Positions 208 to 64,000 of a stretch of DNA of 64,000 bases are shown in pieces (position 1 is the stretch's first letter; each line of letters begins with the position of its first letter). Source of the stretch: Gemmatimonadota bacterium (GTDB taxonomy: Bacteria > JBHIER01 > G020348925); the NCBI GenBank assembly GCA_020348925.1, contig CP070758.1:1072469-1136468 (forward strand), given 5' to 3'. The notes below the pieces were generated by a model. The model was not told where the DNA came from. It saw nothing but the letters and a program-made list of their open reading frames with translations, and did no database searches. A program made the position numbers and the translations under genes.

Positions 208-1335
208 ATGAAGGGGAAAACACTCATCCCTATTCCTTTTTGGGGAAAATTGGTGCTACTTGTAACCGCAGGGTTCACTCTCTTTCTCTTCAATAACATC
301 TGGGGTCAGAATGCATTGATCGTAGAGAATGCTGACTACTTCAGGGGATCAATAGGTAATATTCTGACTATCACTATGGTTAACGAGGGTAATGTTGCTG
401 GTATCATGCTTGATATAACTTTCGACCCTGACTGCTTTTCTATTGATCCTGAAAGTTGTTCAAAGACTGACCGAACTATAGATATGAATATTTTCGCAGC
501 AGTCAATCCGGAGCCAGGACTTATCAGATTTACGGCGGCAAGTCTTGGCACATTCATTCCTCCGGGATCAGGTCCTATTGTTCGCTTTACTGTGGGCGTA
601 TCCTCAGAATGTGAACTTGGGCAGTATACCTTTGCCTTATCGAACTCAAAATTTGCTGATCCGGCTGGTAGAGAATATCCTCATGATGTGGTGAATGGAA
701 TCATAACTGTTTGGCCTCCAACGGTATTAAATGTTGAGGATCAGGTTGTCTTTCAAAATTCTCGTGATAATGTCATCAATCTTAATTTGGACGATGAGTC
801 TCAAGATGCGCTAATATGTGCTGCAGAGGTTTCTATTTTGTACGATACAACGTGTTTTGAAGTGATCTCAGTAGAACCAACGAACCGAACAAGAGATCTC
901 AATATTTTTCAATATGCTGATAGAGATAGTGGAATTCAAATCGCTATGACTGGTCTTGGTGCATGTATTTTGAAAGGAACAGGTCCTATTGCAAGAATTA
1001 ATGTAAATGTCAGTAATTGCCCGGAAGGTTTTTTTTCTTGGAATATATCCAATGCAAAATTAGCAGACGGAGGAGGCAATATTATTCCCTTCATCGAGGT
1101 TGATGGCAACATTGCCATCTATACGAGTCCTAAAGGGAATGTAAACGATGACGGCACAATCGATGCCCTTGATGTCGTCCTCACCATCAGAATTGCCATT
1201 GGTCAATACCCTGATCCAAGCGAGAGCGAACTCCAAGCTGCAGACTGCAATTTAGACGGACAGGTTGATGTCTCAGATGTCATCGGTATTGTCAATATTA
1301 TTACAGGACTTGGAATCTGTCTGCCTTTAAATTAA
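208..1335 (+). CDS. Secreted protein with two cohesin-like domains and a C-terminal dockerin (scaffoldin/adaptor-like)
   Basis: AAGGAG RBS before ATG 208 (202 also possible); signal peptide; two ~135-aa beta-rich repeats (..LDITFDPDCF..TDRT..GSGPIVRF / ..ILYDTTCF..TNRT..GTGPIARI); duplicated Ca-loop GNVNDDGTIDALDV..ADCNLDGQVDVSDV. Confidence 0.75.
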   Translation: MKGKTLIPIPFWGKLVLLVTAGFTLFLFNNIWGQNALIVENADYFRGSIGNILTITMVNEGNVAGIMLDITFDPDCFSIDPESCSKTDRTIDMNIFAAVNPEPGLIRFTAASLGTFIPPGSGPIVRFTVGVSSECELGQYTFALSNSKFADPAGREYPHDVVNGIITVWPPTVLNVEDQVVFQNSRDNVINLNLDDESQDALICAAEVSILYDTTCFEVISVEPTNRTRDLNIFQYADRDSGIQIAMTGLGACILKGTGPIARINVNVSNCPEGFFSWNISNAKLADGGGNIIPFIEVDGNIAIYTSPKGNVNDDGTIDALDVVLTIRIAIGQYPDPSESELQAADCNLDGQVDVSDVIGIVNIITGLGICLPLN

Positions 1336-1350
1336 TTATTGGAAGGATTG

Positions 1351-1668
1351 ATGTTAAAAAAATTGTTCATATTTTTTATTACAGTACATATCATCTTTGT
1401 AGCTGGGGAAATTTGGAGCCAGAATACATTTAGCGTAGAGAATGCTATTTTCTTATTGGGATCGACTGACAACATTCTGACTATCAGCTTGAATGTTGAC
1501 TCCTATGTTGCTGCCATTCAGTTTGATCTCTCGTATGACTCAAACTGCTTTATTATCGATCCACAAAGTTTAACACGAACCGATCGAACTGTAGATTTGA
1601 CTGTTTTTCAGGCCAGCAATCCCGAGCCAGGCCTGATCATGTTTGCAGGGACCGGTATTGGTACGACC
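1351..1668 (+). CDS. Secreted cohesin-domain protein, paralogue of the upstream gene (3' part lost in gap)
   Basis: Signal peptide then VENA..NILTISL..AIQFDLSYDSNCF..RTDRT..NPEPGLI, highly similar to cohesin 1 of 208-1335. Confidence 0.7.
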
Positions 1669-1768
1669 NNNNNNNNNNNNNNNNNNNNNNNNNNNNNNNN
1701 NNNNNNNNNNNNNNNNNNNNNNNNNNNNNNNNNNNNNNNNNNNNNNNNNNNNNNNNNNNNNNNNNNNN
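1669..1768. other. Assembly gap (100 N)
   Basis: Run of N; true length unknown. Confidence 1.
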
Positions 1769-2987
1769 CTGCCCAACCCGAGTAATCCCCCTCATCATCG
1801 CCCAAGATAACCACGTCCTCATCATCATCCAGCCAGATTTCATCGATTTCATCCCCCAGATCCTCCGAGCCCAGAATGATGTACGTCTTTCCTTCCTCAC
1901 TCGGCTGTTCCGTATCAGCACCAGGAGCGCCGATGACGATGTCATCGATCCCGTCGCCGTTGACATCACCGGTGGCTAGGGCCGAGCCTGAATGGCCATA
2001 CTCATCATCGCCCAGGATGAGGACGTCCTCATCATCATCCAGCCAGATTGTTTCATCGTACAGCGCATACTCCGAGCCCAAAATTACGTACGTCTTCCCT
2101 TCTTCACTTCTTACTTCCGTATCAGCACCGGGAGCGCCGATGATGATGTCATCGATCCCGTCGCCGTTGACGTCACCACTGGCTAACGCCCAGCCCGAAT
2201 TGGCCTCATCGCCATTGCCCACGATGAGCACGTCCTCATCACTATCTAAATAAATATCTGACGGCAGGCTGGCCGATCCGAAGATGACGTATGTTTCCCC
2301 CTCGTCACTATCGGTCACTACATCAACACCAGGAGCCCCGACAATAATATCACCCACCCCGTCCCCGTTGACGTCACCGGTGGCCACGGCCTGTCCCACA
2401 CGGCCCCCATTATAAAAACCCCAGATGACGACATAGCCATTATTTTCAATGCCCGGGACACCCTTCTCCGATCCATGCCACCCATAGACTTCTATGGTAT
2501 CCGGCAGACTGGCCGAGCCGAAGATGACGTACGCCGCACCTTCGTCACTCAGATCATTCACATCAACACCTGGGGCTCCGATGATGATATCATCGATCCC
2601 GTCGCCGTTCACGTCACCACAGGCCACTGAAGCGCCAAACTCGTCACCTTCATAAGCTCCCATGATGCGCACGCTCACCTTGCCCCCCAGGCCGATCTTA
2701 TCCGGCAGATTGGCTTTCCCATAAATGACGTATACCTCACCCTCATCACTCCTTCCATCCGTGTCCCCATTAGGAGCTCCTATAATGATATCGTCGATCC
2801 CGTCGCCGTTGACATCACCACTGGCCACGGCTGCGCCTGAATATCCTGCATAATCATCGCCCAGGATGCGCACATCCTCCTCGCCCTCATCCAGATCAAT
2901 CGTATGCGGCAATTGAGCCTGGATCTCACCGAATCCAAAGCCCACTAAGAATGCGGCGAAAACTGATAAAAATAGAATCCTTCTCAT
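1769..2987 (-). CDS. Secreted FG-GAP (integrin-alpha beta-propeller) repeat protein, 3' part in gap
   Basis: GGAGGT RBS, signal peptide MRRILFLSV..AQ, five A(S/T/C)GDVNGDG(I/V)xDIIxGAP..G..Y(V/I)I.G repeats, very acidic. Confidence 0.85.
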
Positions 2988-3293
2988 ACCTACCACCTCC
3001 TTTGACATCGAAAGGGACACCCTAAAAAGGGCATATTCCCCACTGGTTTCACATGCACTGCATCTTCTTGTACCATTCCGCTTATAGGATCACCTCCTTT
3101 CAAAGCCATAGGTATACATGAACATGAGCATCCTGAATCGCTGCTTCGAGGGAAACAAAAAAGGAATTTGTAACATAGAATGAGAAAAAACATGAGATGA
3201 ATTGAAAAGATCTCACAATTAAAGACGGTTCAGAGTAAACATCCCCTCCTGTGTGCACTCCTACCAGCATACTACCAGCTTTCTCCGACAACT

Positions 3294-3525: not shown

Positions 3526-6423
3526 TTACGAAGATCCACACTCGCCCATACCCAATATTGCATTTATCATACCCACCGCATCAAGAATGTCGATGAGCCC
3601 ATCGCCGCTGCAATCGGCCGCCCACTCTTCCGATGCGGTCGGGGTCTCAAGCCCCAACAGAATGTTCACAGCACGAACGACATCGACGATGTTGACATAT
3701 CCATCAGCGTTGACATCACCCTTCAGTCTCTGAGAAACAGAGATCGAAAAATCTTGGGTGTCCCTGGCCAGTACGGCATCCGTCACCTCAATGGTGATGA
3801 ACGTGCTCTCCGCAGCAGTCGGTGTGCCAAAGATCATCCCGGCAAGGCTGTCAAGCCCTAATCCATCAGGCAAAAACCCTGATATGACATCCCACCTGTA
3901 AGGAGCTGTCCCACCGACGGCCAAGAGGGCCTCACTGTATGCGAAACCGACAAATCCATCGCAGAGAACAGTGCTCACAACGACCAGAGATGGCATGTAC
4001 TCAATAGTGTCCTGGAAACAATCGGACCAGTTGCCGGCCGCATCCTGGAATTGGACAAAAACCGTTTTCGTCCCTGCGAAAGGCGTCCCACCATACTCCC
4101 CGGCTGTCAGGTCCCAGTCGCTCCTGACATCGGCGTAATCCTCGGCCTCAGACCATGAGACCCCGTCGTTGCTAAACCGCATCCGGGCCCCTGACCCCAG
4201 ACCGCTGAACTCATCAACAGCGCCCAGCTTATCGAGAGTGACCACGTTGGTGAACGTCGTCTCGGCACCACTATTGATGGAAATGCTTCCGTCGACCGGT
4301 CCGGACCTATCGATGCAGAAGGGCCCCACATGAACGGGGCTCCCCCAATTCCCGGCACGATCCACACACCGAATATGAAAATAGTGATCGCTGCCATCGC
4401 TCAGGGGCGACGATGTCACTGACCCCACACCCCCCTCAACACAAACGGTCGAGTCCGGCAGAGTGAGCGGAGACTTGTCCCACAGCGTCGCATACCCATC
4501 CAGGCCGGCACCTGGACCGGGATCCGTTGCATCGGTCCAGGCGATCTCCACGGTGGGGGCATTCGACCAGACGCCGGGCTGATGGCTGGCACTGGTCACA
4601 TTCGTTGGACCATCGGGGAACACCGTATCCTTGAAAAACTGCCAGCTCCAACGACATCCCCCAGCCTCATTACCGGCACGATCTCGGACCTTGAAGTAAA
4701 TCGTATTGCTCCCCTGAGGGAGATCACCAAATCCGGGTATGGCCCAACCGTCACTGTCCCAAAAGAAACCACCCACATTGAGAAAAAGGTTGATCCACTG
4801 ACCGCTACAGGAATTTATCTGGTACCAGCCGTCGTCCAGATCGCCGTCGTCGTCAAACCCAAAGTTGGAGAAGCTGGGCGCGGTGTTGTACCATCGGCCC
4901 TGGGGCTCTGCGATCCGTTCCATGGTGGGACAGGGCAGATCATCGGTTTGGGAGGCGGAATAGGTAAATGTGAGACCCGTACCCTCAGAAGACAGGACGA
5001 CCGGAATGAGAACGATCCTGTCGTAATCTTCCCAGCTTACGGCCATGGTTCCCGCACCGTCGCCGTCCAGTTGTATCTCGGTAAATTCGGTTCCCGGATA
5101 AAAGGCCACCATCGCTGCCCAATCGTATCCATCCTGGCCGTCGAAGGTTATGCTCAGGCCCCGCTGTCCCTCAGCTTCCGGGTAGTCAAACTGAATAAAA
5201 CTTGTTCCATAGAAATCGAGCGGATGATCCCCCTCATCCCCACTCGCCGGATACGTGCTGTGGATGTGGGAGGGCTTGATGTAAGGACCATTTACCCAGT
5301 TACCGCCAAATGAGAAGTGTTGCCCGTCGTCGTTCGGACCTGTAAAATAACGCCAGATGCAATATTCCTTGAGAGCCTGGTTGAAACTGCTCCCGTAAGA
5401 GGCGGCGAGAACATAATCAATGTCGGCGATGGTGTGTTCCCCCCAGTTGGTGCTGTTTCGGACCCAAATCCGTCTCGGCAGGTCTATGTCGCTGTACCTC
5501 TCGGTCAGAAAGAAGACCCACGCGCATCCCGAATACATATATCTGTTGTAAAGCGCCGTGATGGACAGCCAGGGATTTGACAGCGGATTTTCATTCCCCG
5601 AAGTTGTCATAGTAAAAGATTCAAGAAGCTCACTGTAGACCGTATACGCCATCCAGTTTGCGCAGTTTTCTAACCAGAAAAAATGCTCGGACCAGCTGTA
5701 ACTGATCTCACAGGCGTGATTGAATTCGTGAGCCACTATTTTCTTGTACTGTGAAGATTTAGCTTCATTAGTAACAACAATATAACTGGTCCAATCCTCT
5801 TGATCGGGATCAGGCCCTTCTTGCTCAGGGGAAACATATCCATACACTTTTATGTTCTTGATATAAATATCATAGAGATCATCGCCACCCAGACCGTAGT
5901 CCGAAGGCGGCTCATCCCAATGCATCTCAGTGCATTGTTGACTCCAATTATGCTCGGCGTACATCCCCACAATAAGGGCAAGTGAGTCAGGGAAAGCATC
6001 GACTAGCTGGTGGGTGTAATGAATCCTGAAATGGGTGGTTTTGAGTATTATCTCAGGACCGCTCAAAGTCGGCCTTTCAAGATGACGCTTCAATGTCCGC
6101 TGCGCCGCCGTGCTCAGCCTGCCCCAATTCCTCCGCACCTCCAAAAAAGTCGGCGTCCCGCACACAGCAGATCCATCATCCTCGGACACACCGGCCCTGT
6201 ACTCCTCGGGCAGTCTCTCAAAATCATCGATCGCATAGACCTTGTACATGAGGGCAGTTTCGTAGTCAATCTCCCCCGATTGATAGGACCTCTCTATTTT
6301 CGTCAACACGGTCCCATGAGATTTTTTCTCACTTCCCGTAGCACGTCCTGAGGAGTGAGAACTGCCGGAGAGAAACAGAACCATGAGGCCGAGAGAGACA
6401 ACGGTTCCATATCGCTTTCCCAT
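3526..6423 (-). CDS. Secreted HEXXH metallopeptidase-like protein (MXAN_6640-like) with Ig-like domains, putative-Ig (He_PIG) repeat and C-terminal dockerin
   Basis: AAAGGAG RBS; signal peptide; CGT cysteine-switch-like motif, HFRIHY, VAHEFNHA..WLE; D.AGN Ig-like motifs; GGTAPYRW..LPDGL..GTPT; GDVNADGYVNIVDV..ADCSGDGLIDILD. Confidence 0.75.
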   Translation of the reverse strand: MGKRYGTVVSLGLMVLFLSGSSHSSGRATGSEKKSHGTVLTKIERSYQSGEIDYETALMYKVYAIDDFERLPEEYRAGVSEDDGSAVCGTPTFLEVRRNWGRLSTAAQRTLKRHLERPTLSGPEIILKTTHFRIHYTHQLVDAFPDSLALIVGMYAEHNWSQQCTEMHWDEPPSDYGLGGDDLYDIYIKNIKVYGYVSPEQEGPDPDQEDWTSYIVVTNEAKSSQYKKIVAHEFNHACEISYSWSEHFFWLENCANWMAYTVYSELLESFTMTTSGNENPLSNPWLSITALYNRYMYSGCAWVFFLTERYSDIDLPRRIWVRNSTNWGEHTIADIDYVLAASYGSSFNQALKEYCIWRYFTGPNDDGQHFSFGGNWVNGPYIKPSHIHSTYPASGDEGDHPLDFYGTSFIQFDYPEAEGQRGLSITFDGQDGYDWAAMVAFYPGTEFTEIQLDGDGAGTMAVSWEDYDRIVLIPVVLSSEGTGLTFTYSASQTDDLPCPTMERIAEPQGRWYNTAPSFSNFGFDDDGDLDDGWYQINSCSGQWINLFLNVGGFFWDSDGWAIPGFGDLPQGSNTIYFKVRDRAGNEAGGCRWSWQFFKDTVFPDGPTNVTSASHQPGVWSNAPTVEIAWTDATDPGPGAGLDGYATLWDKSPLTLPDSTVCVEGGVGSVTSSPLSDGSDHYFHIRCVDRAGNWGSPVHVGPFCIDRSGPVDGSISINSGAETTFTNVVTLDKLGAVDEFSGLGSGARMRFSNDGVSWSEAEDYADVRSDWDLTAGEYGGTPFAGTKTVFVQFQDAAGNWSDCFQDTIEYMPSLVVVSTVLCDGFVGFAYSEALLAVGGTAPYRWDVISGFLPDGLGLDSLAGMIFGTPTAAESTFITIEVTDAVLARDTQDFSISVSQRLKGDVNADGYVNIVDVVRAVNILLGLETPTASEEWAADCSGDGLIDILDAVGMINAILGMGECGSS

Positions 6424-8754: not shown

Positions 8755-10500
8755 GTGATGGAAATGCTGAACAAATTAATGACATTGAATTTTCCTCACG
8801 TGATCGTCACACTTTTTCTTGTGACCTCTGCTTTCGGAAACGCCGGTCTCACGAACACATCCGGCATTATAGTCGATATCCGTAATATCGGTCATCGCAA
8901 TTGGGAGATGGCATCCTTTTCACTTGATAAGAAACTTGATCTCCATATTGAGGCTCGCGGGACCGAACCACAACGGGATGATTTCGTCTATTCCTACGCC
9001 TGGATACTGGATGCTCGATCAAGAGACGTCGTGTGGGAGATGAACTTGGATAAGACATCACGAAAAAGACGTCTCAAGAAATTTACCTACGAAAGGATGA
9101 TTACGCTTTCAGAGGGTGATTACGAGGTCTATTACGCCACTTCTACTTTTTTTATGGACATGAACATAGAAGGGTTGGGTGATCTCTTCGAAAGTATTAT
9201 ACACGGTCTCCAAGACAAGCGATACACTGCAGACCGCGGTATTACGATCAAGGCCAAAGATTCAAGGGACATGAAATATGTCCACGAATACGATCCACAT
9301 AAAAGAGACAAGAACGTGATTCTCCAAATGACCTGCGTGGGAGATGACGAGTTTCACAAAGAAGGCTTTACTTTGAAGAAACCTGCGGCCGTTCGTATCT
9401 ATGCCCTTGGGGAAGGGAGCCTGAACGACCGTGAGATGAGCGATTACGGTTGGATTATGAACACCAAGACCCGCGAGCGAATCTGGGAGATGACGACCCG
9501 AAACACCGATCACGCCGGTGGTGCAGACAAGAACCTGCTTTATAACGATCGCTTCACCCTGCCTGCCGGTAGTTACATGGTCTCCTATGTCACTGATGGC
9601 TCCCATTCGTACGAACGATGGAACGCTCGACCTCCGTATGACCCGAACCATTGGGGCATTACACTGTGGTCAGAAGATTCAAGTTTTATCCAACAGGACG
9701 TTGTTCCACATGTTGCAACACAGGAGAAGGAGCCCGTCATCAAAATGGTTCGTATGCAAGACGATGAATTTAGAAGTCAGGGCTTTTCTCTTTTGAAGCC
9801 GGCGGATCTTCACATTTACGCGCTGGGTGAATATGCAAGTGACACGTTTTACGATTACGGTATTATTTTGGACGCCCATACACGTGAAAAAGTATGGAGC
9901 ATGACTTTTTACAATACGAAGCATGCGGGTGGTGGAAAAAAGAATCGTATTCATGACGACATCGTTCGATTTCCTGCCGGTGACTATATCGTGTATTACA
10001 TTACCGATGAATCCCATTCCTTACACGAATGGAATGCGGGTCCCCCGTATGACCCGGAAGCATGGGGTATCACCATCTGGGTGGCGGAGGACAATTTTGA
10101 ACCGAATAGCATTCAAAAGTACACGGTTCGTGAAGATCCTAATGTTCTGACGAATTTAACCGGGCTGGGGGATCAAGAGCAAGGGGTTGAACGATTCTCC
10201 TTAGACCAAAGCACGCGGGTTCGCATCTATGCTGTTGGTGAGGGTGATCGATACGACATGTACGATTACGGATGGAATGAGGATGAAAGAGGACGGATGG
10301 TTTGGGAGATGACTTATCGGAATACCGGGCACGCTGGTGGTGCTCAAAAGAATCGTCTCTTCAACGATGTTATCGTGTTGGGTGAAGGAGAGTACACGGT
10401 ACATTTCGTCACGGACGGCTCACACTCATTCAAAAAATGGAACAGCACTCCACCTTACGATCCGTTCCATTGGGGTATCTTGGTGATGAAGGAGGAGTGA
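8755..10500 (+). CDS. Secreted hypothetical protein with four ~135-aa tandem repeats
   Basis: Signal peptide; recurring IYALGE..DYG.I..VW.M...NT.HAGG..KN..G.Y.V...TD.SHS...WN..PPYDP..WGI. Confidence 0.8.
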   Translation: MMEMLNKLMTLNFPHVIVTLFLVTSAFGNAGLTNTSGIIVDIRNIGHRNWEMASFSLDKKLDLHIEARGTEPQRDDFVYSYAWILDARSRDVVWEMNLDKTSRKRRLKKFTYERMITLSEGDYEVYYATSTFFMDMNIEGLGDLFESIIHGLQDKRYTADRGITIKAKDSRDMKYVHEYDPHKRDKNVILQMTCVGDDEFHKEGFTLKKPAAVRIYALGEGSLNDREMSDYGWIMNTKTRERIWEMTTRNTDHAGGADKNLLYNDRFTLPAGSYMVSYVTDGSHSYERWNARPPYDPNHWGITLWSEDSSFIQQDVVPHVATQEKEPVIKMVRMQDDEFRSQGFSLLKPADLHIYALGEYASDTFYDYGIILDAHTREKVWSMTFYNTKHAGGGKKNRIHDDIVRFPAGDYIVYYITDESHSLHEWNAGPPYDPEAWGITIWVAEDNFEPNSIQKYTVREDPNVLTNLTGLGDQEQGVERFSLDQSTRVRIYAVGEGDRYDMYDYGWNEDERGRMVWEMTYRNTGHAGGAQKNRLFNDVIVLGEGEYTVHFVTDGSHSFKKWNSTPPYDPFHWGILVMKEE

Positions 10501-23723: not shown

Positions 23724-23828
23724 TGACTTTTCATACTTCCGAAAGAGAATCCCACCTGACCCGGTCTGGGAAGAGCAGCTCGTATTTTTCCGAAGGTGGC
23801 ATCCGAAACTCTGCAATTACAATGAAAA

Positions 23829-40857: not shown

Positions 40858-40858
40858 A

Positions 40859-42076: not shown

Positions 42077-42566
42077 GTTCACTCTTCCTTTCTTTCAATT
42101 TCATCCTCGTGTATGGAAGAAGCCCGCCGGCATCCCGGACGGCCATAATCTCCCGAGGCAGCGGTGGGAATTGATACGTTCGATCGCCGATGACCAATTC
42201 CCCTTCACCTAAATTCAATTGGACCTCCTGCCCCTTCTCATACTCTTTCACTGCTTCAGGGCATTCAATAAGCAGAAGCCCCTGGTTGATGGCCGCCCGA
42301 TAAAAGATGCGGGCGAAGCTCTCGGCCACCACCGCGACAATGCCGACGGCTTTGAGACCAATGACAGGTTGCTCTCGCGAGCTGCCGCAACCGAAGTTTT
42401 TTCCGGCAAAGATGATATCTCCTTCCTTCACATTGTTGGCAAAATCGGGATCAAGATCTTCCAGGAGATGCGGCCGAATCTCCTGGGGTGTGCTGCACGT
42501 ATACGTGTACTTGCCGGGAAAGAGCATGTCGGTGTTGATATCATCCCCGTATTTCCAAACGTTCAT
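42060..42566 (-). CDS. LeuD/HacB-like hydratase small subunit
   Basis: DDINTD..PG.Y, NFGCGSSRE, SFARIFYR..IN.G, GGLL. Confidence 0.92.
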   Translation of the reverse strand: MNVWKYGDDINTDMLFPGKYTYTCSTPQEIRPHLLEDLDPDFANNVKEGDIIFAGKNFGCGSSREQPVIGLKAVGIVAVVAESFARIFYRAAINQGLLLIECPEAVKEYEKGQEVQLNLGEGELVIGDRTYQFPPLPREIMAVRDAGGLLPYTRMKLKERKSEHGKEE

Positions 42567-42609
42567 CGAGTTGCCTCTCTTAGTGCTTTCCTCAACAGCA
42601 TTTTCAGTG

Positions 42610-42688
42610 TGTCATTCCGGCCGGAGTGCCGGAATCTCAATCGCGTTACATCATATTTGGAGATTGCCGCATTCGCGGGGGAGTGACG
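42610..42688. repeat. REP-like palindrome pair within the operon
   Basis: GTCATTCCGGC..GCCGGAATCTC plus degenerate inverted partner GAGATTGCCGC..GCGGGGGAGTGAC. Confidence 0.6.
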
Positions 42689-42777
42689 ACAAGACGAAGC
42701 CATGTGATTGTCGAGCCGGAAAATGCAGGCTTCTCCAAGTTTTCTGGGCGATATGAAAATAAATTCTCAAGTTCACA

Positions 42778-44037: not shown

Positions 44038-44048
44038 ACTCTTCACCC

Positions 44049-45872: not shown

Positions 45873-45924
45873 ATCAAAATCCCTCGCATAAATGTACTGT
45901 TGACCGTATTGACTTTGAAAACAA

Positions 45925-45953
45925 AGTATAAGGCAAAAAAAGTACAGTGTCAA
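45925..45953 (-). promoter_or_regulatory. Sigma70 promoter of the hydratase/lyase operon
   Basis: TTGACA-N17-TATACT. Confidence 0.7.
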
Positions 45954-49146: not shown

Positions 49147-49149
49147 ATA

Positions 49150-54477: not shown

Positions 54478-56562
54478 ATGTTTAAGAAGTTAAACGTAAT
54501 TTCGGTAATTATAATTACATCAATTTGTATGACCAGTCCAAGGGCATCTGAACACTTTACCGATCAAAGAGCGGTGCATCCTATTATAGAACTTTCAAAA
54601 AGTAAATTTTACAATTCTGGAATATTACCAATTACTTCAACTCCCCTTTACGGATCCGAAACGGACTGGTGTGAAATAATTGACTCGACATGGGGAGAAG
54701 GTGCACCCACTGAAGAAAAACTCAGAATTTTCGATATGTTTTGGGAGACGATCGATCATAATTTTGCGTGTTTTCAAGGTTTGGATATTGAGTGGGATGA
54801 TTTGCGGGCAAGATACAGACCCGAAATCGAGGGTGGAGTGAGCCGGGGCCGCTTTTGTGCAATTATGAATCATCTTGCTTTGACATTGAGAGAATCCCAT
54901 ACGGCAATTATTGATACAGTAGTCAATTACACTTACCCACAACCTGGCATTCCGCTAATGCTACTTTATACCAGGAAAATTAGCTCCGAATATGCCAATC
55001 ACTTTTCTGGGCATTTTGGGGCCGGCCTGTCTCCCCTTCCTGATAGTACTCTGCTCGTATATAATACTGTAGAATCACATCCTTTAGGGCTCAGACCCGG
55101 TGATATTGTTCTTGGTTATGATGGAATTCCCTGGCATCAGCTTTTGCAGGAGTTATTGGAGGCCCAACTCCCCATATATGGTTCCTCGGGAAGTACAGAG
55201 AGTTCATATACTCATATTCTTCAAAAGAGTGCAGGTTTGAACTGGCATTTGTTTAATACCATTGATGTCGTTAAGTATGATACTGGTGATACACTTCATC
55301 TTGATACAAGTCCGCTAATAAATCAAGACATGGAGTTTGTTGACTCAGAGTCAATGGATATTCCCGGTGTTCCAAAACCAGACATAATGAATAATGATCC
55401 CGTAAGCTATGGAATTATCGAAGGGACAAAAATCGGCTATATTTACGTTTGGATATGGTATTTTGATGCTGATTCACAGTTTTATGATGCTGTCTATGAC
55501 TTACTGGACAATTATGAGACTATCGGACTTATAATAGATATTCGCAACAACACAGGTGGAAATATGTTTTTGTTTGATAAAGGATTATCACTACTCTTCA
55601 ATTCTTCTGTAAGCACGATTGGGTTTGCTTCCAGATGTAATCCTAACGATCATTTTGCGATGTGCAACGCCTGGGGTCCTGAATATTATGAGCTCCAACC
55701 TGATCCGACGACTTACTATGACAGACCAATTGCCGTGCTTATCGGACCATTATGTATAAGTGCAGGCGATATGCTTGCATTGTGGATGAAATTTCATCCG
55801 AAGTGTCGGTTCTTTGGGAAACCAACGATGGGAGCTTTCAATGGTCCAACTGGACTATCTTTGGAGAATGAAGATTGGAGATGCAGATATGCTGAATTCG
55901 AGGCCTATTTAGCAGATGATCCTGAGCATTATTTAACGCGTGAAGAATTGAATGTAGACGTACCTGTGTGGCTTGAACCTGATGATGTGGTCCAAGAATT
56001 GGATACAGTTGTTGAAGAGGCCAAGGCATGGATTCTCAATCAACCACATATCCGCACGTCCAGCCTTTCTCTTGATTTTGGGGTAGTTACGGTGTGTGGG
56101 TCAACTAGCCAAACACTAACTATTTATAATGATGGTTTCGTGACATTAGAGGTGAATCCACTTTCATCGAGTGATCCACAATTTGAGGTTTCATCCAAAT
56201 TTCTTAGCATTGCAGGATCAGGATCAACAGATGTGGAAATAATTTTTACACCAAGAAGTGAGAACTCGGTTGAAGCATCTCTAACCCTATTATGCAATGA
56301 TTCAAACCGACCACAACCTCAAATAAATCTTTATGGAGTGGGAATTTTGGAAATCGAAATCCAATTTGGTGATGTAAATAGAGATTCAGTTATTAATGTG
56401 CTGGATGTTTTGTCCGTGGTGAACCATATTCTGGGCACTGCAGAGTTCACTGATACGGAGGTGATGTGTCGGGCTGATTGCAATGCAGATGGACAAGTTA
56501 ATGTCTTGGATGCCTTGGGTATTGTGAATGTAATTCTCGGAATAGGTGAGTGTGAAACGTGA
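54478..56562 (+). CDS. Secreted S41 family peptidase with Ig-like domain and C-terminal dockerin
   Basis: Signal peptide; L.ESH, GL.PGD, IGYI, LIIDIRNNTGG, ISAGD, GKPTMG; LDFG.V..IYNDG...L Ig-like; GDVNRDSVINVLDV..ADCNADGQVNVLD. Confidence 0.88.
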   Translation: MFKKLNVISVIIITSICMTSPRASEHFTDQRAVHPIIELSKSKFYNSGILPITSTPLYGSETDWCEIIDSTWGEGAPTEEKLRIFDMFWETIDHNFACFQGLDIEWDDLRARYRPEIEGGVSRGRFCAIMNHLALTLRESHTAIIDTVVNYTYPQPGIPLMLLYTRKISSEYANHFSGHFGAGLSPLPDSTLLVYNTVESHPLGLRPGDIVLGYDGIPWHQLLQELLEAQLPIYGSSGSTESSYTHILQKSAGLNWHLFNTIDVVKYDTGDTLHLDTSPLINQDMEFVDSESMDIPGVPKPDIMNNDPVSYGIIEGTKIGYIYVWIWYFDADSQFYDAVYDLLDNYETIGLIIDIRNNTGGNMFLFDKGLSLLFNSSVSTIGFASRCNPNDHFAMCNAWGPEYYELQPDPTTYYDRPIAVLIGPLCISAGDMLALWMKFHPKCRFFGKPTMGAFNGPTGLSLENEDWRCRYAEFEAYLADDPEHYLTREELNVDVPVWLEPDDVVQELDTVVEEAKAWILNQPHIRTSSLSLDFGVVTVCGSTSQTLTIYNDGFVTLEVNPLSSSDPQFEVSSKFLSIAGSGSTDVEIIFTPRSENSVEASLTLLCNDSNRPQPQINLYGVGILEIEIQFGDVNRDSVINVLDVLSVVNHILGTAEFTDTEVMCRADCNADGQVNVLDALGIVNVILGIGECET

Positions 56563-56600: not shown

Positions 56601-59045
56601 ATGCTTCATCATATGATCTCAAAGTTGGGGATAATCAGTGCAATAATGGGTCTTGTTTCTTCTGTGCTGTTGGCAGAGAATTTGACTCTGAACTTAAGCT
56701 CAAAGGATTATTCCATAGTTGAATTGGAAGATGGCCAACAGACGATCCAAATGGAAGACTTTGGGTATCTTCTGGATCCAGGGAAACCCCTGCTGCCGGC
56801 AAAAGTATTCATGATCGCTCTACCGCCTGGGGCAGAGGTGCTGAATGCAGCTATTACTGGAATGAGTCCCATCGAACTCCCTGGAACATATAGAATAGAG
56901 CCAGCTCCGCCAATCGTGCCTTCGGATAACAGAAGGGAGTTGGTGAAAAGGTTGATACGAGAATGGAAAGAAAACTATGATGCTACGTATTCATCTGATC
57001 AAATCTACCCTGAAAAAGTTGGAGAATATCTGGGACCGGGAGGCTTGAGGAAATATACCTTTGCTAAGATAAGTTTCTTCCCCTTTGCCTTTCGACCAGT
57101 ATCAGGAAAACTTGTGTACTACCCTTCTGCTATTGTATCCATAGACTATACATTACCTTTGTCAGACAACTCAAAAGCTCTTGAAGTAGGACGACTCCTT
57201 TCGGACACATTAGGAGACGATCGTGCTTCTCGGTTATTGGTCAATTTTTCTCAAGCGAGCCGTTGGTATGCTCCGGAGAAGAGAGATGAAGTTCAAAACA
57301 CAACCTATGACTATGTGATCATCACCACTCCTGAATTGGAAGATGCGGTTGAACCTTTGATGAAATGGAAACAAGGAATAGGTTTCAGTGTAAAGGTGAT
57401 CACTATTGCCTGGATTGATGAAAACTATACCGGATTTGATATGGCTGAGATGATTAGGAATTTTCTCAAGGATAAGTATCCTGCATCTGAGTGGGGAATT
57501 CAATATGTTCTTATTGTGGGAGACATAAGCGATATTCCCATGAGATACTGTTTTCCTGATCCTGATAATCATGTATTTACACCGGACGATCTTTATGATA
57601 ATGCCTATATTAGTGGAGAAGTTCCTACCGATTATTATTATGCTGATTTGACTGGAAACTGGGACTCAGATGGAGATGGATATTATGGAGAGTTTCGTCA
57701 AGATGAAGAAGTAGATTTTGTTTCTGAGGTTTGGATTGGACGAATACCGTTAAGCGATTGGTTGACTGTTAATAATATCTGTAAGAAAATTGCACTATTT
57801 GAGAGCGACGTTGGTTCTTGGAAAAACAATGCTCTACTTCTTGGTGCAATAACGTTCTATAACTTCGAAGACGGCGATCCACACTATAGCAAAACTGATG
57901 AAGCCGGTGTGATGGAAGACATGAAAACATTTTTATTAGAGGGATGGAATTGCACACGGATGTATGAAAAAGATGGATTAGATCCATCGTCATTTACATG
58001 TGAGACTCCGCTGACTCAAGACAATGTAGTATCATATTGGTCAACAAATCAATATGGTATTGTAACTTGGTCGTCGCATGGATGGGTAAATAACGCTGCT
58101 CGTGTAGTCTGGGAACAGGATAATGGAAATGGCTTTCCTGAATGGGCAGAGGATGAATTGCATGGATATCCATTTATTGAAAACGCAAATACAGCCTCAT
58201 TAGATGATGACTATCCCTCAATAGTTTTCGGCTCGGCTTGTATGAATTCATATCCTGAAGTTGACAATCTCGGTACAAGATTATTGGAAAGGGGTTCTTC
58301 AAGCATAGTGGCGGCTACCCGTGCTGTGGCAGGTCCTTTTGGTAGACAACACAAGGATGTAGGTGGGAATATCTCATGTAACTACTATTTCTTTCATTAT
58401 ATTATTAGTGAGGAGAATAAAGTTGGAGAAGCACTCTTCAACTCAAAAAACTATTACCATGACCATTTCTTATCTTCAGGTTTCTGGGACTATCAGAATC
58501 TGTACGCAAATTGTTTATACGGTGATCCGGCATTGGTTAGGGAAGGTATACCAAAAGATTCTCAATCACTCACTATTCTCAATAATTTCATGCCTCCAGC
58601 TTTTGTTGGTTTTGCGTATAGCGAGCCCCTTCTGGCTGTGGGTGGAACACCTCCGTATCACTGGAATTTGACTGATGGATCCGTGCCCGATGGAATATCG
58701 CTTGATACTCTTTCAGGGGTCATTTTAGGAACACCAACAGTTGTCGAAACGACTACCTTCACTATTGAGGTAACAGACGCCGAACACAAAACAGACTTTC
58801 AAGATTTCTCTATGACTACTTCTATTGGAAAGAAGGGCGATGTAAATGCAGACATGCAGATTAACGCTGTCGATATGCTTCAGGCAGTAAATATACTGAC
58901 AAGAAGTTACTCACCGACTCATTTTGAAATGTGGGCTGCTGATTGTAATGGTCCAGTTGGAAATTGTGACGGTGATGGAGTAATTAATGTATTAGATATT
59001 GTTAAATTTGTGAGATTTATTTTAACTTTGGAGGAATGTCCTTAA
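56601..59045 (+). CDS. Secreted C25 (gingipain-like) cysteine peptidase with propeptide, putative-Ig repeat and dockerin
   Basis: GGAGG RBS; PGKP.LP propeptide; YVIIT, YVLIVGD, TDYYY, IGRIP, SHG, SAC, YGDP; GGTPPY.W..GTPT; GDVNAD..GDGVINVLD. Confidence 0.9.
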   Translation: MLHHMISKLGIISAIMGLVSSVLLAENLTLNLSSKDYSIVELEDGQQTIQMEDFGYLLDPGKPLLPAKVFMIALPPGAEVLNAAITGMSPIELPGTYRIEPAPPIVPSDNRRELVKRLIREWKENYDATYSSDQIYPEKVGEYLGPGGLRKYTFAKISFFPFAFRPVSGKLVYYPSAIVSIDYTLPLSDNSKALEVGRLLSDTLGDDRASRLLVNFSQASRWYAPEKRDEVQNTTYDYVIITTPELEDAVEPLMKWKQGIGFSVKVITIAWIDENYTGFDMAEMIRNFLKDKYPASEWGIQYVLIVGDISDIPMRYCFPDPDNHVFTPDDLYDNAYISGEVPTDYYYADLTGNWDSDGDGYYGEFRQDEEVDFVSEVWIGRIPLSDWLTVNNICKKIALFESDVGSWKNNALLLGAITFYNFEDGDPHYSKTDEAGVMEDMKTFLLEGWNCTRMYEKDGLDPSSFTCETPLTQDNVVSYWSTNQYGIVTWSSHGWVNNAARVVWEQDNGNGFPEWAEDELHGYPFIENANTASLDDDYPSIVFGSACMNSYPEVDNLGTRLLERGSSSIVAATRAVAGPFGRQHKDVGGNISCNYYFFHYIISEENKVGEALFNSKNYYHDHFLSSGFWDYQNLYANCLYGDPALVREGIPKDSQSLTILNNFMPPAFVGFAYSEPLLAVGGTPPYHWNLTDGSVPDGISLDTLSGVILGTPTVVETTTFTIEVTDAEHKTDFQDFSMTTSIGKKGDVNADMQINAVDMLQAVNILTRSYSPTHFEMWAADCNGPVGNCDGDGVINVLDIVKFVRFILTLEECP

Positions 59046-59345: not shown

Positions 59346-61577
59346 ATGATCGGCGAAACTATCTCTCACTATAAAATACTGAAAAAACTGGGTGAAGGTG
59401 GCATGGGAGTGGTATATAAAGCTAAAGATACCAAACTTGACCGCACAGTTGCACTAAAATTTCTTCCTCCAGAACTCACCAAAGATCCTAATGCAAAGGA
59501 GCGCTTTATTCAAGAGGCAAAAACTGCTTCAGCCCTGCAACACAACAACGTCTCCACTATCCATGAAATTGATGAAACTGCTGATGGCCAAATATTCATA
59601 AGCATGGACTTCTATGAGGGAGAATCCTTACAAGAGAAGATTGAAAAAGGGTCGCTCGATATAGAAGAAGCGATTGATATTGGCACTCAGATAGCCGAGG
59701 GTCTTCATGAAGCCCATGAAAAGGGAATCGTCCATCGAGATATCAAATCTGCCAATATTATGATCACATCCAAAGGGCAGGCGAAGATCATGGACTTCGG
59801 TCTGGCCAAGTTGAGAGGGCAGAAAAAACTAACAAAAGAAGGGACGACTGTCGGGACGGTTGCCTACATGTCTCCCGAGCAAGCGCGGGGTGATGAAGTC
59901 GATCATCGGACGGATGTCTGGTCTCTTGGTGTGGTGCTCTATGAGATGTTGACGGGACATATGCCGTTCAAGGGTGATTACGACCAGGCACTAATATACT
60001 CAATATTGAATGAAGATCCAAAACCACCTTCTTTCTATCGCACAGAAATACCGCCCTACTTAGAACAGATCCTCATAAAAATGTTAGAGAAGGAGTCGAA
60101 AAATAGGTACCAGACTATGCAGGAGGTACTTGTAGAGTTAAATAAAACAGGTGTTGATTCTTCAACATCACAAGAGTGTCAAAAGTCGATAGTCGTTCTG
60201 CCCTTTAAAAATATGAGCCCTGACAAAGAAAACGAGTATTTCAGTGATGGCCTTACTGAAGAAATTATTACGGACCTTTCAAAGATACATGCACTCCGAG
60301 TTATTTCCCGTAATTCTGCAATGATGCTGAAAGGATCTCGAAAATCCACAAAAAATATCGCACGAGAGTTAAACGTTCAATACGTCTTGGAAGGGAGTGT
60401 ACGGAAAGCCGGGAATAATCTCCGAATCACTGCGCAGTTGATTGATGCAAAAGATGATACACATCTATGGGCAGACAAATATAGTGGGACGCTGGATGAT
60501 GTTTTTGTGATTCAGGAGAAAGTCTCGAACGAAATCGTTAAAGGCTTGCAGATAAAGTTGAGTCCGGAAGAAAAAAAAGAAATCGGACAACATCCTATCC
60601 AGGATATGCGTGTCATGGAGTGCTGGCTCAGGGCGAAACAGGAGATTCACCACTATACGAAAGAATCTCTTGATAGGGCTGTTTCCATGATCGAAGATGG
60701 TCTGGAAGTAGTCGGTGATAATGCTCTCCTTTACTGGGGCCTCGGATATATTAACTGGTTTTATGTCAATTTGGGAATTCATTTGGATACAAAATATTTA
60801 AATAGAGCAGAAGAATATGTCAACAGAATATTTGAATTGGACTCTAATTCCTTTTATGGATTTCAATTACAGGTTTTGATTGCTTATAAGAGAGGTGATT
60901 TTAAAAAGTCGATTGAATACACAAAGCGGGCGCTTGAACTTGAACCGACCAACCCTGAAGCTCTGGACCACATTATCTGGATGTATGCAGATGTGGGAAA
61001 AACAGAGAATTCTGCTAAATTAATTGACAGGTTATTATCTGTGGATCCTTTGACACCTCACAACCACTGGGCGGAGGGATTTACCTTGATGGTGAGCGGA
61101 CACTTAGAGGATTCAGTCAAATCTTTCCGAAAATGCTATGAATTGGAATCTGGAAATTATGTCTGGAGATGGGCGTATGCATCAGCACTTTATATGAATA
61201 AAGAGTACGATAACGCAGATGCAATAGCAGATCTTGTGGAAAAAGAGGCCTCTAATGATCTTTTGAGCAGCTTGTTATTATTCACCAAATATGCGATAAG
61301 AAGAGATAGTGATAAAGCACTGCGAATGGTTACAGATGATCATCAAGCATTTAGCGATTGGGATGAGTTGGTGGCCTGGGCACTTGCACAAGGCTATGCG
61401 CTAATTAATGAAAAAGAAAAGTCATTGAACTTTCTTGGAAAAGCGGTTAACCGTGGATTTATAAATTATCCATTTTTCTCCAGATATGATCCCTTTCTTG
61501 AGAACATCCGCGATGAGGAGAGATTCAAGAAATTGATGGAAAAAGTAAAATATGAATGGGAGCATTTTGAGATATAA
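59346..61577 (+). CDS. Ser/Thr protein kinase - TolB-like - TPR protein (no TM, cytoplasmic)
   Basis: Intact kinase motifs; SIVVLPF.NMS..EYFSDGLTEEII directly after the kinase with no hydrophobic span; TPRs; DP.L..IR..ERF. Confidence 0.93.
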   Translation: MIGETISHYKILKKLGEGGMGVVYKAKDTKLDRTVALKFLPPELTKDPNAKERFIQEAKTASALQHNNVSTIHEIDETADGQIFISMDFYEGESLQEKIEKGSLDIEEAIDIGTQIAEGLHEAHEKGIVHRDIKSANIMITSKGQAKIMDFGLAKLRGQKKLTKEGTTVGTVAYMSPEQARGDEVDHRTDVWSLGVVLYEMLTGHMPFKGDYDQALIYSILNEDPKPPSFYRTEIPPYLEQILIKMLEKESKNRYQTMQEVLVELNKTGVDSSTSQECQKSIVVLPFKNMSPDKENEYFSDGLTEEIITDLSKIHALRVISRNSAMMLKGSRKSTKNIARELNVQYVLEGSVRKAGNNLRITAQLIDAKDDTHLWADKYSGTLDDVFVIQEKVSNEIVKGLQIKLSPEEKKEIGQHPIQDMRVMECWLRAKQEIHHYTKESLDRAVSMIEDGLEVVGDNALLYWGLGYINWFYVNLGIHLDTKYLNRAEEYVNRIFELDSNSFYGFQLQVLIAYKRGDFKKSIEYTKRALELEPTNPEALDHIIWMYADVGKTENSAKLIDRLLSVDPLTPHNHWAEGFTLMVSGHLEDSVKSFRKCYELESGNYVWRWAYASALYMNKEYDNADAIADLVEKEASNDLLSSLLLFTKYAIRRDSDKALRMVTDDHQAFSDWDELVAWALAQGYALINEKEKSLNFLGKAVNRGFINYPFFSRYDPFLENIRDEERFKKLMEKVKYEWEHFEI

Positions 61578-62370: not shown

Positions 62371-62482
62371 TGTCATTCCGGTTTTATACCGGAATCTCCT
62401 TCGTAGAGAAGAAGTTGAGCCCACCGAGGAGATTCCGGCACGGAGTTTACCCCGTATTCTTTTACGGGGGCCGGAATGACAG
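62371..62482. repeat. Inverted REP-like pair with nested palindrome
   Basis: TGTCATTCCGG..CCGGAATCTCC and GGAGATTCCGGC..GCCGGAATGACA. Confidence 0.7.
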
Positions 62483-62570
62483 CTTGTGAATAGAGCAGGT
62501 TAGAGACAAGAAATTGAAAAAAACACATAATCATGGCTGCACCCGACTGGCGAGCGGTATTGCGATTTGG

Positions 62571-62670
62571 NNNNNNNNNNNNNNNNNNNNNNNNNNNNNN
62601 NNNNNNNNNNNNNNNNNNNNNNNNNNNNNNNNNNNNNNNNNNNNNNNNNNNNNNNNNNNNNNNNNNNNNN
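62571..62670. other. Assembly gap (100 N)
   Basis: Run of N. Confidence 1.
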
Positions 62671-63007
62671 CGTCTATGATAAAAGGACCGCTGGCAAAAC
62701 TGAGTACCCCACTGGTCGTGGAGATATTCACCAGATCGTACTGCTCATAGATCTTCGGGTCCCGAATGACCCACTCCGGATAGATCCCCACATTCACCAG
62801 GGCGAACATCAACTCGTACCCATCATACACCGCATTGGCACTCATGCCCGGGTTGTTCGCCGTGACGTTGCCGCCAAAGGTCAGATCGATGATCAAATCA
62901 CCCGCACAATAATCCTTCGTCTGGGAATAGCTCATGCCAGTGACCGAGACAGTACAAACTAAAAGAAAAAATAGCAGGCATCCTATCTTCGCTGATATTT
63001 TCATCAT
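62671..63007 (-). CDS. Secreted hypothetical protein, 5' part (continues into gap)
   Basis: GAGGAG RBS; signal peptide MMKISAKIGCLLFFLLV. Confidence 0.65.
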
Positions 63008-63140
63008 ATTATCTCCTCAATTTTCGTAAAGGAAACATGTTCAAAATCGTATTCTTCAAATCACTTGTTTTTTGAGCATCTATTTTTAATGTATGACTAT
63101 TATTGAGTCAAGAAAAATTATAGTATCATCAAAGTGGCAA

Positions 63141-64000
63141 CTACTTCATGAGTATCATGCGCTTTGTTTCCGACCACCGGTCACTGTCAACGGACAACCT
63201 GTAAAGGTAAACCCCGCTGGATACCGGCTGACCGTCACGGTCCCGGCCGTCCCAGGTGACCGTGTAATATCCCGGCTCCTGTTCTCCATCAACCAGCGTC
63301 CTCACCTCCTGCCCCATGATGTTGTATATTTTCAGGGTCATGTGAACGGAAGACCTGCCATCTCCTATCTGATATCCAATATCTGTCTTGGGATTAAAGG
63401 GATTCGGATAATTCTCGGAGAGAAGACATGCCTCAGGCAGCAGGTTTTTGAGAATCAGAGAGCCGGACGTGATCCGGACCGGAAGCCGGTGCACACAATC
63501 CTCGGCCAACAGGACCTCTTCGAACCACATCAATGGCTCTGTTCGTGATCCTTGCCCATCATGCATTCGAAACGGGATCACGAATACCGGATCCCGGCCG
63601 GCAGGAACCGCCCTTCCCTCCGCACTGTACACGAGGATCACCATTTCACCCTGGGCGGCGCGTGATGCGATCGTCATTCCCTCCGTTCGATCCGTGGGCT
63701 GTGGTTCCGCGAGCATCAGGCAATCACCGTTGTACCCGAGCCGCAGCTCCATTCCCGGAACGTCCGAATCGGTTCGCAGGGCGATCGGCAAGGCGAAGGT
63801 CCGGCCCTCCGCAGGGGACACCTCGGAAAAACCGATTTCCCCAACGGACTGAGCCTTTTTCGGGGTACTGAAAACAGGCGGACATGTATTGACCATCAGG
63901 ATGACATTGGCCACACCCAAAATGTCGAGCACGTCGACCACGCCATCGATATTGCAATCGGCGGCCTGGAGCTGTTCAGGCGTGGGTTCGATCTGCTCCA
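63141..64000 (-). CDS. 3' part of a secreted protein: dockerin - cohesin-like - FlgD-Ig/T9SS-type C-terminal domain
   Basis: PTPEQLQAADCNIDGVVDVLD dockerin; L.L.Y..D....TDRT..I..G..PV..IPF cohesin-like; NYPNPFNP.T..KIYNI.GQ.V..WDGRD..G..VSSGVYLY. Confidence 0.85.
   Translation of the reverse strand, partial: EQIEPTPEQLQAADCNIDGVVDVLDILGVANVILMVNTCPPVFSTPKKAQSVGEIGFSEVSPAEGRTFALPIALRTDSDVPGMELRLGYNGDCLMLAEPQPTDRTEGMTIASRAAQGEMVILVYSAEGRAVPAGRDPVFVIPFRMHDGQGSRTEPLMWFEEVLLAEDCVHRLPVRITSGSLILKNLLPEACLLSENYPNPFNPKTDIGYQIGDGRSSVHMTLKIYNIMGQEVRTLVDGEQEPGYYTVTWDGRDRDGQPVSSGVYLYRLSVDSDRWSETKRMILMK

Follow-up and report, generated by a model that had tools for sequence, protein, structure and literature searches.

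What do the cohesin and dockerin genes in this stretch of DNA encode, a complex of their own or a part of something larger? The stretch, hereafter the window, comprises 64,000 nucleotides (nt) of the genome of a Gemmatimonadota bacterium (assembly GCA_020348925.1, contig CP070758.1, positions 1,072,469 to 1,136,468). It carries an adaptor protein with two cohesins and a dockerin, the C-terminal part of a scaffoldin-type protein that ends in a type IX secretion system (T9SS) tail, and the genes of three proteins with C-terminal dockerins, which are a putative HEXXH metalloprotease, an S41 serine peptidase and a C25 gingipain-like cysteine peptidase (Table 1). A first-pass annotation had read these parts as a cellulosome-like complex of proteases. 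The explanation favoured here, to which we give a probability of roughly 0.65, is that the window samples a genome-wide cohesin-dockerin surface-display network, anchored by the T9SS, in a sediment bacterium. The modules, their folds and numbers, the census of the dockerin cargos and the presence of SprA and PorU are directly established.

The modules named in the first-pass annotation are all real, as judged by Pfam searches of the open reading frames (ORFs) of the window and, for the cohesin that follows the dockerin in the tail-bearing protein, by profile comparison. The cohesin-dockerin-cohesin-tail (CDCT) cassette terminates 14 proteins of the genome, and the alignment of their last 440-570 residues, with the tail-bearing protein of the window (the 63141 protein) placed first, was used for an AlphaFold2 (AF2) model, which has a mean pLDDT of 83.7. 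Residues 6-151 of the modelled cassette match the type I cohesin 6kge_A with a Z-score of 20.0 and a root-mean-square deviation of 1.4 Å over 134 residues (Foldseek, VIA-align), and dozens of other solved cohesins match the same residues at Z 13-20. The beta domain formed by these residues is, by its modelled fold, a genuine cohesin, as had been proposed. The module between the dockerin and the tail of the 63141 protein has no Pfam match and is a diverged cohesin by profile comparison: a profile of 23 such post-dockerin modules aligns to the profile of the pre-dockerin cohesins (hhalign 99.1%, E 1.3e-18) and to solved cohesins in the PDB at E-values from 1.8e-9 to 1e-3, among them 3l8q (1.8e-9) and 3ul4 (2.3e-5).

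The dockerins of the window score 24.6-40.9 bits against a Pfam cut-off of 22.9. The 277 near-complete dockerin modules of the genome have two calcium loops, with the consensus GDVNGDG..D and ADCNGDG..D, whose aspartates are conserved in 276 and 277 of the modules, respectively. A subset, to which the dockerin of the C25 peptidase of the window belongs, has a cysteine-rich insertion in loop 2. A conserved cysteine pair, composed of the cysteine of the second loop (A-D-C-N) and a cysteine in a terminal G-x-C extension, is present in 182 of the 277 modules and could be a stabilising disulfide; we know of no such pair in clostridial type I dockerins.

The subunit proposed to carry an export tail does carry one, which passes the TIGR04183 model, and scores 23.3 bits with Pfam Por_Secre_tail, under the cut-off of 27. 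Two components of the machinery for such tails are also encoded: SprA is found in a frame of 2000 amino acids (aa; SprA_N E 1.1e-44), and the PorU sortase scores 738 bits with NF033707 (cut-off 420) and is above the cut-off in both genomes of the phylum. The pairing of cohesins with dockerins in this genome is presumed from the homology of the modules. A predicted complex of the two adaptor cohesins with the dockerin of the metalloprotease scored 0.13 (mark 0.32) without controls, a result that speaks neither for nor against binding.

The genome (5.04 Mb, 96.3% completeness, 0.52% contamination) was searched through crudely called ORFs, 80 aa or longer and each read from its first start codon, using a dockerin hidden Markov model (HMM) built from 40 Pfam-matched modules, a cohesin HMM built from the genome's own modules, and an iterated tail search seeded with the tail of the 63141 protein. 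The dockerin HMM finds 306 modules in 290 ORFs, which form 284 clusters at 90% identity, so that duplication in the assembly is minor. When 150 of 527 first-look candidates were scored with Pfam, 153 dockerin matches were obtained, and all 150 of those listed exceed the cut-off. Cohesins amount to 189 modules in 101 ORFs by the genome-built HMM, and to 96 matches by Pfam, 73 of them above the cut-off and 57 at E<=1e-5. Tails of the T9SS type are found in 254 ORFs (C-terminal in 250), of which 101 also have a dockerin and 74 also have a cohesin; cohesin, dockerin and tail stand together in 36 ORFs, and 65 ORFs have dockerin and tail. At least one of the three modules is present in 453 ORFs, which cover 1.05 Mb or 21% of the bases.

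Written with C for cohesin, D for dockerin and T for tail, the commonest architectures are D (159), DT (62), CT (17), DD (13), DCT (13), CDCT (11), CCT (10) and CD (10). Adaptors with cohesin and dockerin, which could chain as had been suggested, are supported by the homology of their modules. The dockerins fall into sequence classes named H-type (92), W-type (88), mixed HW (30) and other (67). The H-type is absent from the 17 dockerins of tail-less adaptors and makes up 40 of the 61 dockerins that precede a tail. In the window, the dockerins of the metalloprotease and of the C25 peptidase are W-type, that of the S41 peptidase is H-type, and a third type is common to the two scaffoldin proteins. 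Cohesins group by position as well: of the post-dockerin modules, 21 of 29 have their nearest neighbour in another protein within their own positional class, as do 22 of 32 pre-dockerin and 22 of 41 inner-anchor modules. These classes and positional groups suggest a specificity hierarchy.

The window itself has only five ORFs with a dockerin, none of which is a glycoside hydrolase (GH), as first noticed, and its three peptidases do end at the dockerin, no more than about 10 residues beyond it. The genome-wide census of cargos covers 250 of the 290 dockerin ORFs, which have at least 120 aa outside dockerin, cohesin and tail modules. These were scanned with Pfam in five batches (E<=1e-5) and the 25 commonest families of each batch were counted, which makes the counts lower bounds; a further scan, for rare families, covered 57 cargos in which at least 250 residues resemble no other cargo. 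Single-linkage clustering of the cargos was also tried and collapsed to one component of 176 via shared Ig-like modules, and the Pfam censuses were used instead.

At least 43 of the 250 cargos are peptidases, distributed over M28 (10), C25 (7), M1 (5), S41 (4), M14 (4), S8 (4), M6 (2) and C1 (2), with one each of M64, M10, DPPIV-like, C39-like and the HEXXH protein of the window; the S8 count was taken from the search by family given below. Beside the two M6 proteins, seven more cargos have only an InhA-like MAM domain. Carbohydrate-active cargos number five to seven, which are one each of GH31, GH13, GH99 and GH57, one or two heparinase-like proteins and one weak (alpha/alpha)6 protein; GH5, GH9 and GH48 are absent from the families listed for the 250 cargos. 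Other enzymes with dockerins are two peptidyl-arginine deiminases, six proteins with a beta-lactamase fold, four with nuclease or phosphatase folds, one alkaline phosphatase and two esterases. Looked at from the side of the families, dockerin ORFs hold 22 of 38 matches (C25 8 of 13, M28 10 of 16, S8 4 of 9), and the remaining S8 matches are four with a tail only and one unresolved. No other class of enzymes is as common on dockerins as the peptidases, which are far more numerous there than glycoside hydrolases, so the expected enrichment of dockerin partners for peptidases is borne out across the genome. Peptidases are strongly enriched for dockerins, yet they make up about a fifth of the cargos. 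A reading in which the system serves proteases only is therefore not upheld, because at least four fifths of the classified cargos are not peptidases and a few GH13, GH31, GH57 and GH99 enzymes carry dockerins.

Two observations concern individual cargo families. A tandem same-strand array of nine paralogues of about 1000 aa, each with an M28 aminopeptidase-type domain and a C-terminal dockerin, lies at G000:C1:2574222-2600583, where G000 denotes the present genome, and two further M28-dockerin genes lie outside it. The two deiminase domains that carry dockerins, found in batch A2, are of the Porphyromonas type.

The commonest cargo families are non-catalytic, with Laminin_G_3 in 32, FG-GAP_3 in 31, PKD_4 in 26 and TSP_3 in 20 of the 250 cargos (one protein may count repeatedly). 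Such numbers, the 36 ORFs with cohesin, dockerin and tail and the 65 with dockerin and tail, which suit cross-linking, and a CDCT cassette that is conserved across lineages would also fit a coat that is mainly adhesive or structural. In a coat of this kind, S-layer-like or a glue between cells or between cell and particle, propeller, lectin-like and PKD proteins would be cross-linked by cohesin-dockerin pairs and enzymes would be a minority. Against this stand the dockerins on at least 43 peptidases, and on nucleases, phosphatases and glycoside hydrolases, and the finding of 22 of the 38 matches of three peptidase families in dockerin ORFs. A mainly adhesive coat appears rather unlikely to us; it is compatible with the surface-display network, and the two are not exclusive.

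Does the window, then, encode a dedicated complex of its own, with the local cohesin proteins serving specifically as the scaffold of the three local dockerin peptidases? All the needed parts are within 64 kb, the C25 gene adjoins the S41 gene on the same strand, and on the left contig four scaffoldin-type genes of one strand (DCT, CT, the cohesin-cohesin-dockerin adaptor and a cut cohesin gene) do form a run. The genome, however, consists of 206 contigs that are joined by spacers of 100 N and are not ordered by size, and the window is made of three contigs of a metagenome-assembled genome (MAG), namely the end of a 10.9-kb contig, the whole of a 60.8-kb contig and the start of a 43.6-kb contig. 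The assembly does not establish that the cohesin genes are linked to the peptidase genes, because 100-N spacers separate their contigs. Within the middle contig, the metalloprotease gene and the S41-C25 pair stand about 48 kb apart, with housekeeping genes in between; the intervening genes encode HisRS, AspRS, PhoH, citrate lyase, aconitases, a TonB-dependent receptor and Ser/Thr kinases. The dockerins of the peptidases also fall into two sequence classes and those of the two scaffoldin proteins into a third. The density of the modules is that of the genome: five dockerin ORFs are found in the window where 3.69 are expected (Poisson P 0.31), and three cohesin ORFs where 1.28 are expected (P 0.14). 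As there is no excess over the genome density, the co-occurring modules of the window are a sample of a genome-wide system and not a local gene cluster. The dedicated multi-protease complex that had been proposed for the window is not sustained by this arrangement, and we consider it very improbable.

The least probable explanation is that many dockerins never pair with cohesins and serve instead as calcium-binding stabilisers or linkers or as signals for sorting, the cohesin-like modules serving other binding, for which speak the genomes G063, G189, G020 and G027, with 1-3 Pfam cohesins (E<=1e-5) against 176, 125, 51 and 74 first-look dockerin candidates, the excess of dockerin modules (306) over cohesin modules (73-189) and the cysteine pair described above, and against which speak the joint expansion of both partners here (57 Pfam cohesins at E<=1e-5 in G000 and 56 in the sister genome G001), the fusion of cohesin and dockerin in adaptor and cassette architectures typical of scaffoldins, and a cohesin fold close to that of solved dockerin-binding cohesins.

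In the surface-display network, as it is proposed here, binding, hierarchy, surface location and substrate are what we infer from the modules. The components, whose sequences suggest N-terminal signal peptides, would first enter the periplasm. If the system works as in Porphyromonas and Flavobacterium, proteins with a type-A tail would then cross the SprA translocon, and PorU would assist in fixing them on the surface; the genes for SprA and PorU are both present. Many of the tailed proteins carry cohesins and would act as surface sockets, into which tail-less proteins that end in a dockerin, including the three peptidases of the window, would plug in a calcium-dependent manner. Adaptors with cohesin and dockerin would multiply the sockets, and proteins with the CDCT cassette would be able to link to each other. 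The product would be a dense cell-bound coat, whose main enzymes are peptidases of many families and which also holds a few alpha-glucan enzymes, nucleases, phosphatases and many non-catalytic propeller, lectin-like and PKD proteins. Such a coat would suit the binding and digestion of proteinaceous detritus.

A bolder version of this mechanism holds that no cohesin-dockerin system seen so far is larger than that of this lineage, that it forms a self-linking lattice on the surface with the CDCT cassette as its basis, and that about 170 bare-dockerin enzymes, themselves without an outer-membrane export signal, are exported by docking in the periplasm onto tailed cohesin proteins and riding the T9SS with them, the dockerin being a 'hitch-hiker' secretion tag. 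This is more speculative still, and we regard it as a conjecture with the odds well against it. A crude regular expression for signal peptides matched 105 of 147 dockerin-only ORFs and also 893 of all 2222 long ORFs; it did not discriminate and was dropped.

Several results weigh against the surface-display network or against parts of it. No route across the outer membrane is apparent for the 172 ORFs that have a dockerin and neither cohesin nor tail, and a search of the genome with the GspD model for a type II secretion system (T2SS) export route gave one secretin locus only, at 154 bits against a cut-off of 351. The majority of the cargos are non-enzymatic, so that "digestive machine" is possibly the wrong emphasis, and single GH or peptidase members may be hidden in batches A1, A2, A4 and A5. 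Six of the 11 full-length C25 domains have W, F, E, I or V at the position of the G-H-G histidine and keep the cysteine; four of these six paralogues carry dockerins and have 1573-1720 aa. The six may lack peptidase activity, unless the alignment is out of register at this position. The inventory has its own limits, in that the genome-built cohesin HMM is possibly generous, Pfam giving 73 modules above cut-off, and that the ORF calls are crude, 40 of the 290 dockerin ORFs being short or contig-end fragments.

How does this system compare with those already described? Cohesin-dockerin assemblies have been studied almost only as Gram-positive machines for plant cell walls. Like cellulosomes, the present system has the same two module families, multi-cohesin scaffoldins, adaptors with cohesin and dockerin, anchoring proteins, and several dockerin and cohesin sequence classes, which suggest a hierarchy. 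The numbers are comparable to those of cellulosomes or larger, with dockerins in about 290 ORFs and 73-189 cohesin modules distributed over about 100 ORFs. Unlike cellulosome producers, the organism is a diderm, whose genome encodes outer-membrane machinery (a TonB-dependent receptor in the window, SprA and PorU), and the anchor is a T9SS type-A tail, found on 74 cohesin ORFs, and not SLH modules or a sortase. The cargo also differs, being dominated by peptidases and non-catalytic propeller and lectin modules, without GH5, GH9 or GH48 among the families listed, and the dockerin is here often followed by a cohesin and then by the tail.

The surface proteases of Porphyromonas gingivalis that are anchored by the T9SS include the gingipains, the peptidyl-arginine deiminase (PPAD) and the PorU sortase, and each enzyme has its own tail and is attached directly. 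The deiminase is a T9SS cargo that works beside the gingipains. The present genome shares with P. gingivalis the C25 gingipain-like peptidases, the peptidyl-arginine deiminase (two dockerin copies here), the type-A tails, PorU and homologues of SprA/Sov, whereas most of its enzymes carry a dockerin instead of a tail and would be attached indirectly, via cohesin proteins.

The precedent of non-cellulosomal, peptide-degrading complexes, to which the first-pass annotation had appealed, does exist as proposals for Planctomycetes (PMC6461901) and Cloacimonadota (PMC8542988). For the cloacimonadotal 'Ca. Stygibacter', a cellulosome-like complex is proposed to act on proteinaceous and starch-like material and not on cellulose (PMC8542988). 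It shares with the present system dockerins on peptidases of the families C25 and S8/S53 and on GH57, and a tandem-cohesin scaffoldin with a T9SS-type C-terminal domain for surface attachment; as described there, it comprises a handful of dockerin enzymes and one scaffoldin of 3,755 aa with carbohydrate-binding modules (CBMs) (PMC8542988). The system found here, in an unrelated phylum, has its components in the hundreds, with about 100 cohesin proteins, and has adaptors and the CDCT cassette. The 'planctosome' of the freshwater Planctomycetes Nemodlikiaceae is a non-cellulolytic complex proposed to hold metallopeptidases M12B and M14 for the degradation of polypeptides, and has in common with the present system an adaptor with both dockerin and cohesin, and peptidase cargo (PMC6461901). 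It differs, in the account given of it there, in having one anchor and one adaptor, a lamin-tail domain as tether in place of a T9SS tail, and no large paralogue expansion (PMC6461901). A scaffoldin-like Coh-Doc-Coh protein is mentioned for Limihaloglobus (PMC11557425). In the literature searched, as far as the texts retrieved extend, cellulosome-like proposals with peptidases are made in PMC8542988, PMC6461901 and the mucinolysome papers, and a T9SS-type scaffoldin domain appears only in PMC8542988; a search of the literature on FCB-type candidate phyla gave no mention of dockerin among the matches listed.

The concept of a peptidase-bearing, cellulosome-like complex is thus already published; the present system stands apart by its scale, by the expansion of both partners together, by the cassette linked to the tail and by its lineage. 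The genome suggests that the logic of plug and socket has been scaled beyond any described cellulosome producer, in a double-membraned, T9SS-anchored form that carries mainly proteases and adhesion modules. If the binding holds, the system would be a pointer to how uncultured sediment bacteria attack particulate protein, would offer protein engineering a large natural set of orthogonal cohesin-dockerin pairs, and would raise the testable question of how tail-less dockerin proteins cross the outer membrane.

The phylum is represented in the collection searched by two species-level genomes in all, the present one and G001, which has at least 121 Pfam dockerins and the 56 Pfam cohesins given above. 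The cohesin-dockerin trait is common to both genomes. First-look dockerin candidates exceed 100 in only two of 250 other genomes sampled, G063 and G189, whose Pfam cohesins number 2-3. The CDCT cassette is widespread and occurs also in other lineages: of the 150 best-matching among 1.84 billion representatives, 91 align to the complete profile in a single C-terminal stretch, and among 400 sampled genomes outside the phylum, of which four candidates per genome were scored, the full cassette is found in five and its dockerin-cohesin-tail part in six more. A smaller unit recurs within the phylum. The C-terminal He_PIG and dockerin of the C25 peptidase of the window are found at 40-55% identity on at least 12 otherwise different proteins of G001, a genome in which the C25 catalytic domain has no close orthologue (31%); the Ig and dockerin unit seems to move as a cassette.

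Table 1. Positions of the features discussed (window numbering, unless the genome is named)
Feature	Position	Strand	Assignment and remarks
Adaptor scaffoldin	208-1335 (ORF from TTG at 151)	+	Pfam Cohesin in two stretches, 55 bits (cut-off 24.1); Dockerin_1 30.5 bits (cut-off 22.9)
Adaptor cohesin 1	304-717 (residues 52-189)	+	residues numbered from TTG at 151
Adaptor cohesin 2	733-1119 (residues 195-323)	+	residues numbered from TTG at 151
Adaptor dockerin	1132-1308 (residues 328-386)	+	residues numbered from TTG at 151
Cut paralogue of the adaptor	1339-1668	+	N-terminal 110 aa: signal peptide and start of a cohesin; ends at N spacer
N spacer	1669-1768
FG-GAP repeat protein	1769-3020	-	Pfam FG-GAP E 8.8e-51; signal-peptide-like N-terminus; C-terminus falls in N spacer, which would hide a dockerin or tail; family frequent among the dockerin cargos of the genome
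Putative HEXXH metalloprotease	3526-6423	-	HEFNH motif; MXAN_6640/DUF6055-like N-terminal domain at about residues 135-384, then Ig-like modules, He_PIG and C-terminal Dockerin_1 (36.6 bits)
Metalloprotease dockerin	3547-3723 (residues 901-959)	-	W-type
S41 serine peptidase	54478-56562	+	Peptidase_S41 50.7 bits (cut-off 24); Tricorn_C1; Ig-like domain; Dockerin_1 40.9 bits
S41 dockerin	56362-56544 (residues 629-689)	+	H-type, C-terminal
C25 gingipain-like cysteine peptidase	56601-59045 (ORF from 56559)	+	Propeptide_C25; Peptidase_C25 142.5 bits; He_PIG; Dockerin_1 24.6 bits
C25 dockerin	58830-59027	+	W-type, C-terminal
N spacer	62571-62670
C-terminus of tail-bearing scaffoldin (63141 protein)	63141-63998 / 63144-64000	-	FlgD_ig 47.8 bits (cut-off 27); partial dockerin
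T9SS type-A tail of 63141 protein	63144-63398	-	TIGR04183 26.5 bits (cut-off 23)
Diverged post-dockerin cohesin of 63141 protein	63453-63839	-	by profile comparison; no Pfam match
Dockerin of 63141 protein	from 63891, cut by window end	-	41.9 bits when read whole
Upstream Pfam cohesin of 63141 protein	genome 1136599-1136931		outside the window
C25 paralogues without the G-H-G His	genome G000 91814, 3733902, 4678730, 4668940, 4673991, 3728744

The adaptor has a signal-peptide-like N-terminus and no tail, and the genome-built HMMs agree with Pfam on its modules. Its homologues are only two among 5.8 billion proteins, and both have cohesin and dockerin, with a nearly invariant dockerin. The ORF that follows it is 45% identical to its first cohesin (BLASTP E 3e-30). 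The 63141 protein does combine dockerin, cohesin and tail, as first described; the first reading is corrected in that the gene lies on the minus strand and extends as far as window position 66491, the whole protein having 1116 aa and more cohesins upstream, beyond the window.

The protein at 3526-6423 has the dockerin and the HEXXH motif that had led to its being called a metallopeptidase, and its identity as a protease is putative. It scores 92.2 bits (E 4.5e-26) with NF045524, the model of the MXAN_6640 family, under the cut-off of 140, and 17 bits with DUF6055 (PF19527), under the cut-off of 27. Its Atlas feature and structure neighbours are DUF6055/MXAN_6640 clusters, some of which are fused to dockerin or T9SS tails, and its domain has no relative among PDB sequences by phmmer. 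It is, by these matches, a putative relative of the uncharacterised putative protease family MXAN_6640/DUF6055, and not a member by the curated thresholds. The S41 protein has a partial match to CPAF, and its family is assigned by profile. In the C25 protein of the window, the Peptidase_C25 match spans positions 1-372 of the 374 of the model. The His/Cys dyad was located by alignment among the paralogues alone, in which the cysteine is kept in 11 of 11; the window copy also has the candidate catalytic histidine. A phmmer search of PDB sequences found no solved relative for this protein. Among the eight listed sediment-metagenome runs (three studies) that contain part of the S41-C25 stretch, none is an RNA run; two of them, both from one study that may be the source, contain at least half of the sequence words of the stretch.

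The S41-C25 pair is flanked on the same strand by four genes for Ser/Thr protein kinases (46564-52982 and 59346-61577), of which three have long TPR regions, and by a TPR protein (53241-54416). Elsewhere in the middle contig, an ORF of 581 aa with a signal-peptide-like N-terminus (8755-10500, plus strand) matched no Pfam or NCBIfam family. A PEP-mutase-family gene adjoins a radical SAM gene (22830-24728, minus strand), and a separate B12-binding radical SAM/DUF4070 gene lies at 12170-13834 (minus strand); the PEP-mutase and radical SAM genes may indicate a phosphonate-type chemistry. The citrate lyase alpha and beta/ACP genes and two aconitase-family genes occupy 39295-45953 (minus strand), a stretch in which the G+C content is raised to 0.554, compared with about 0.47 around it.

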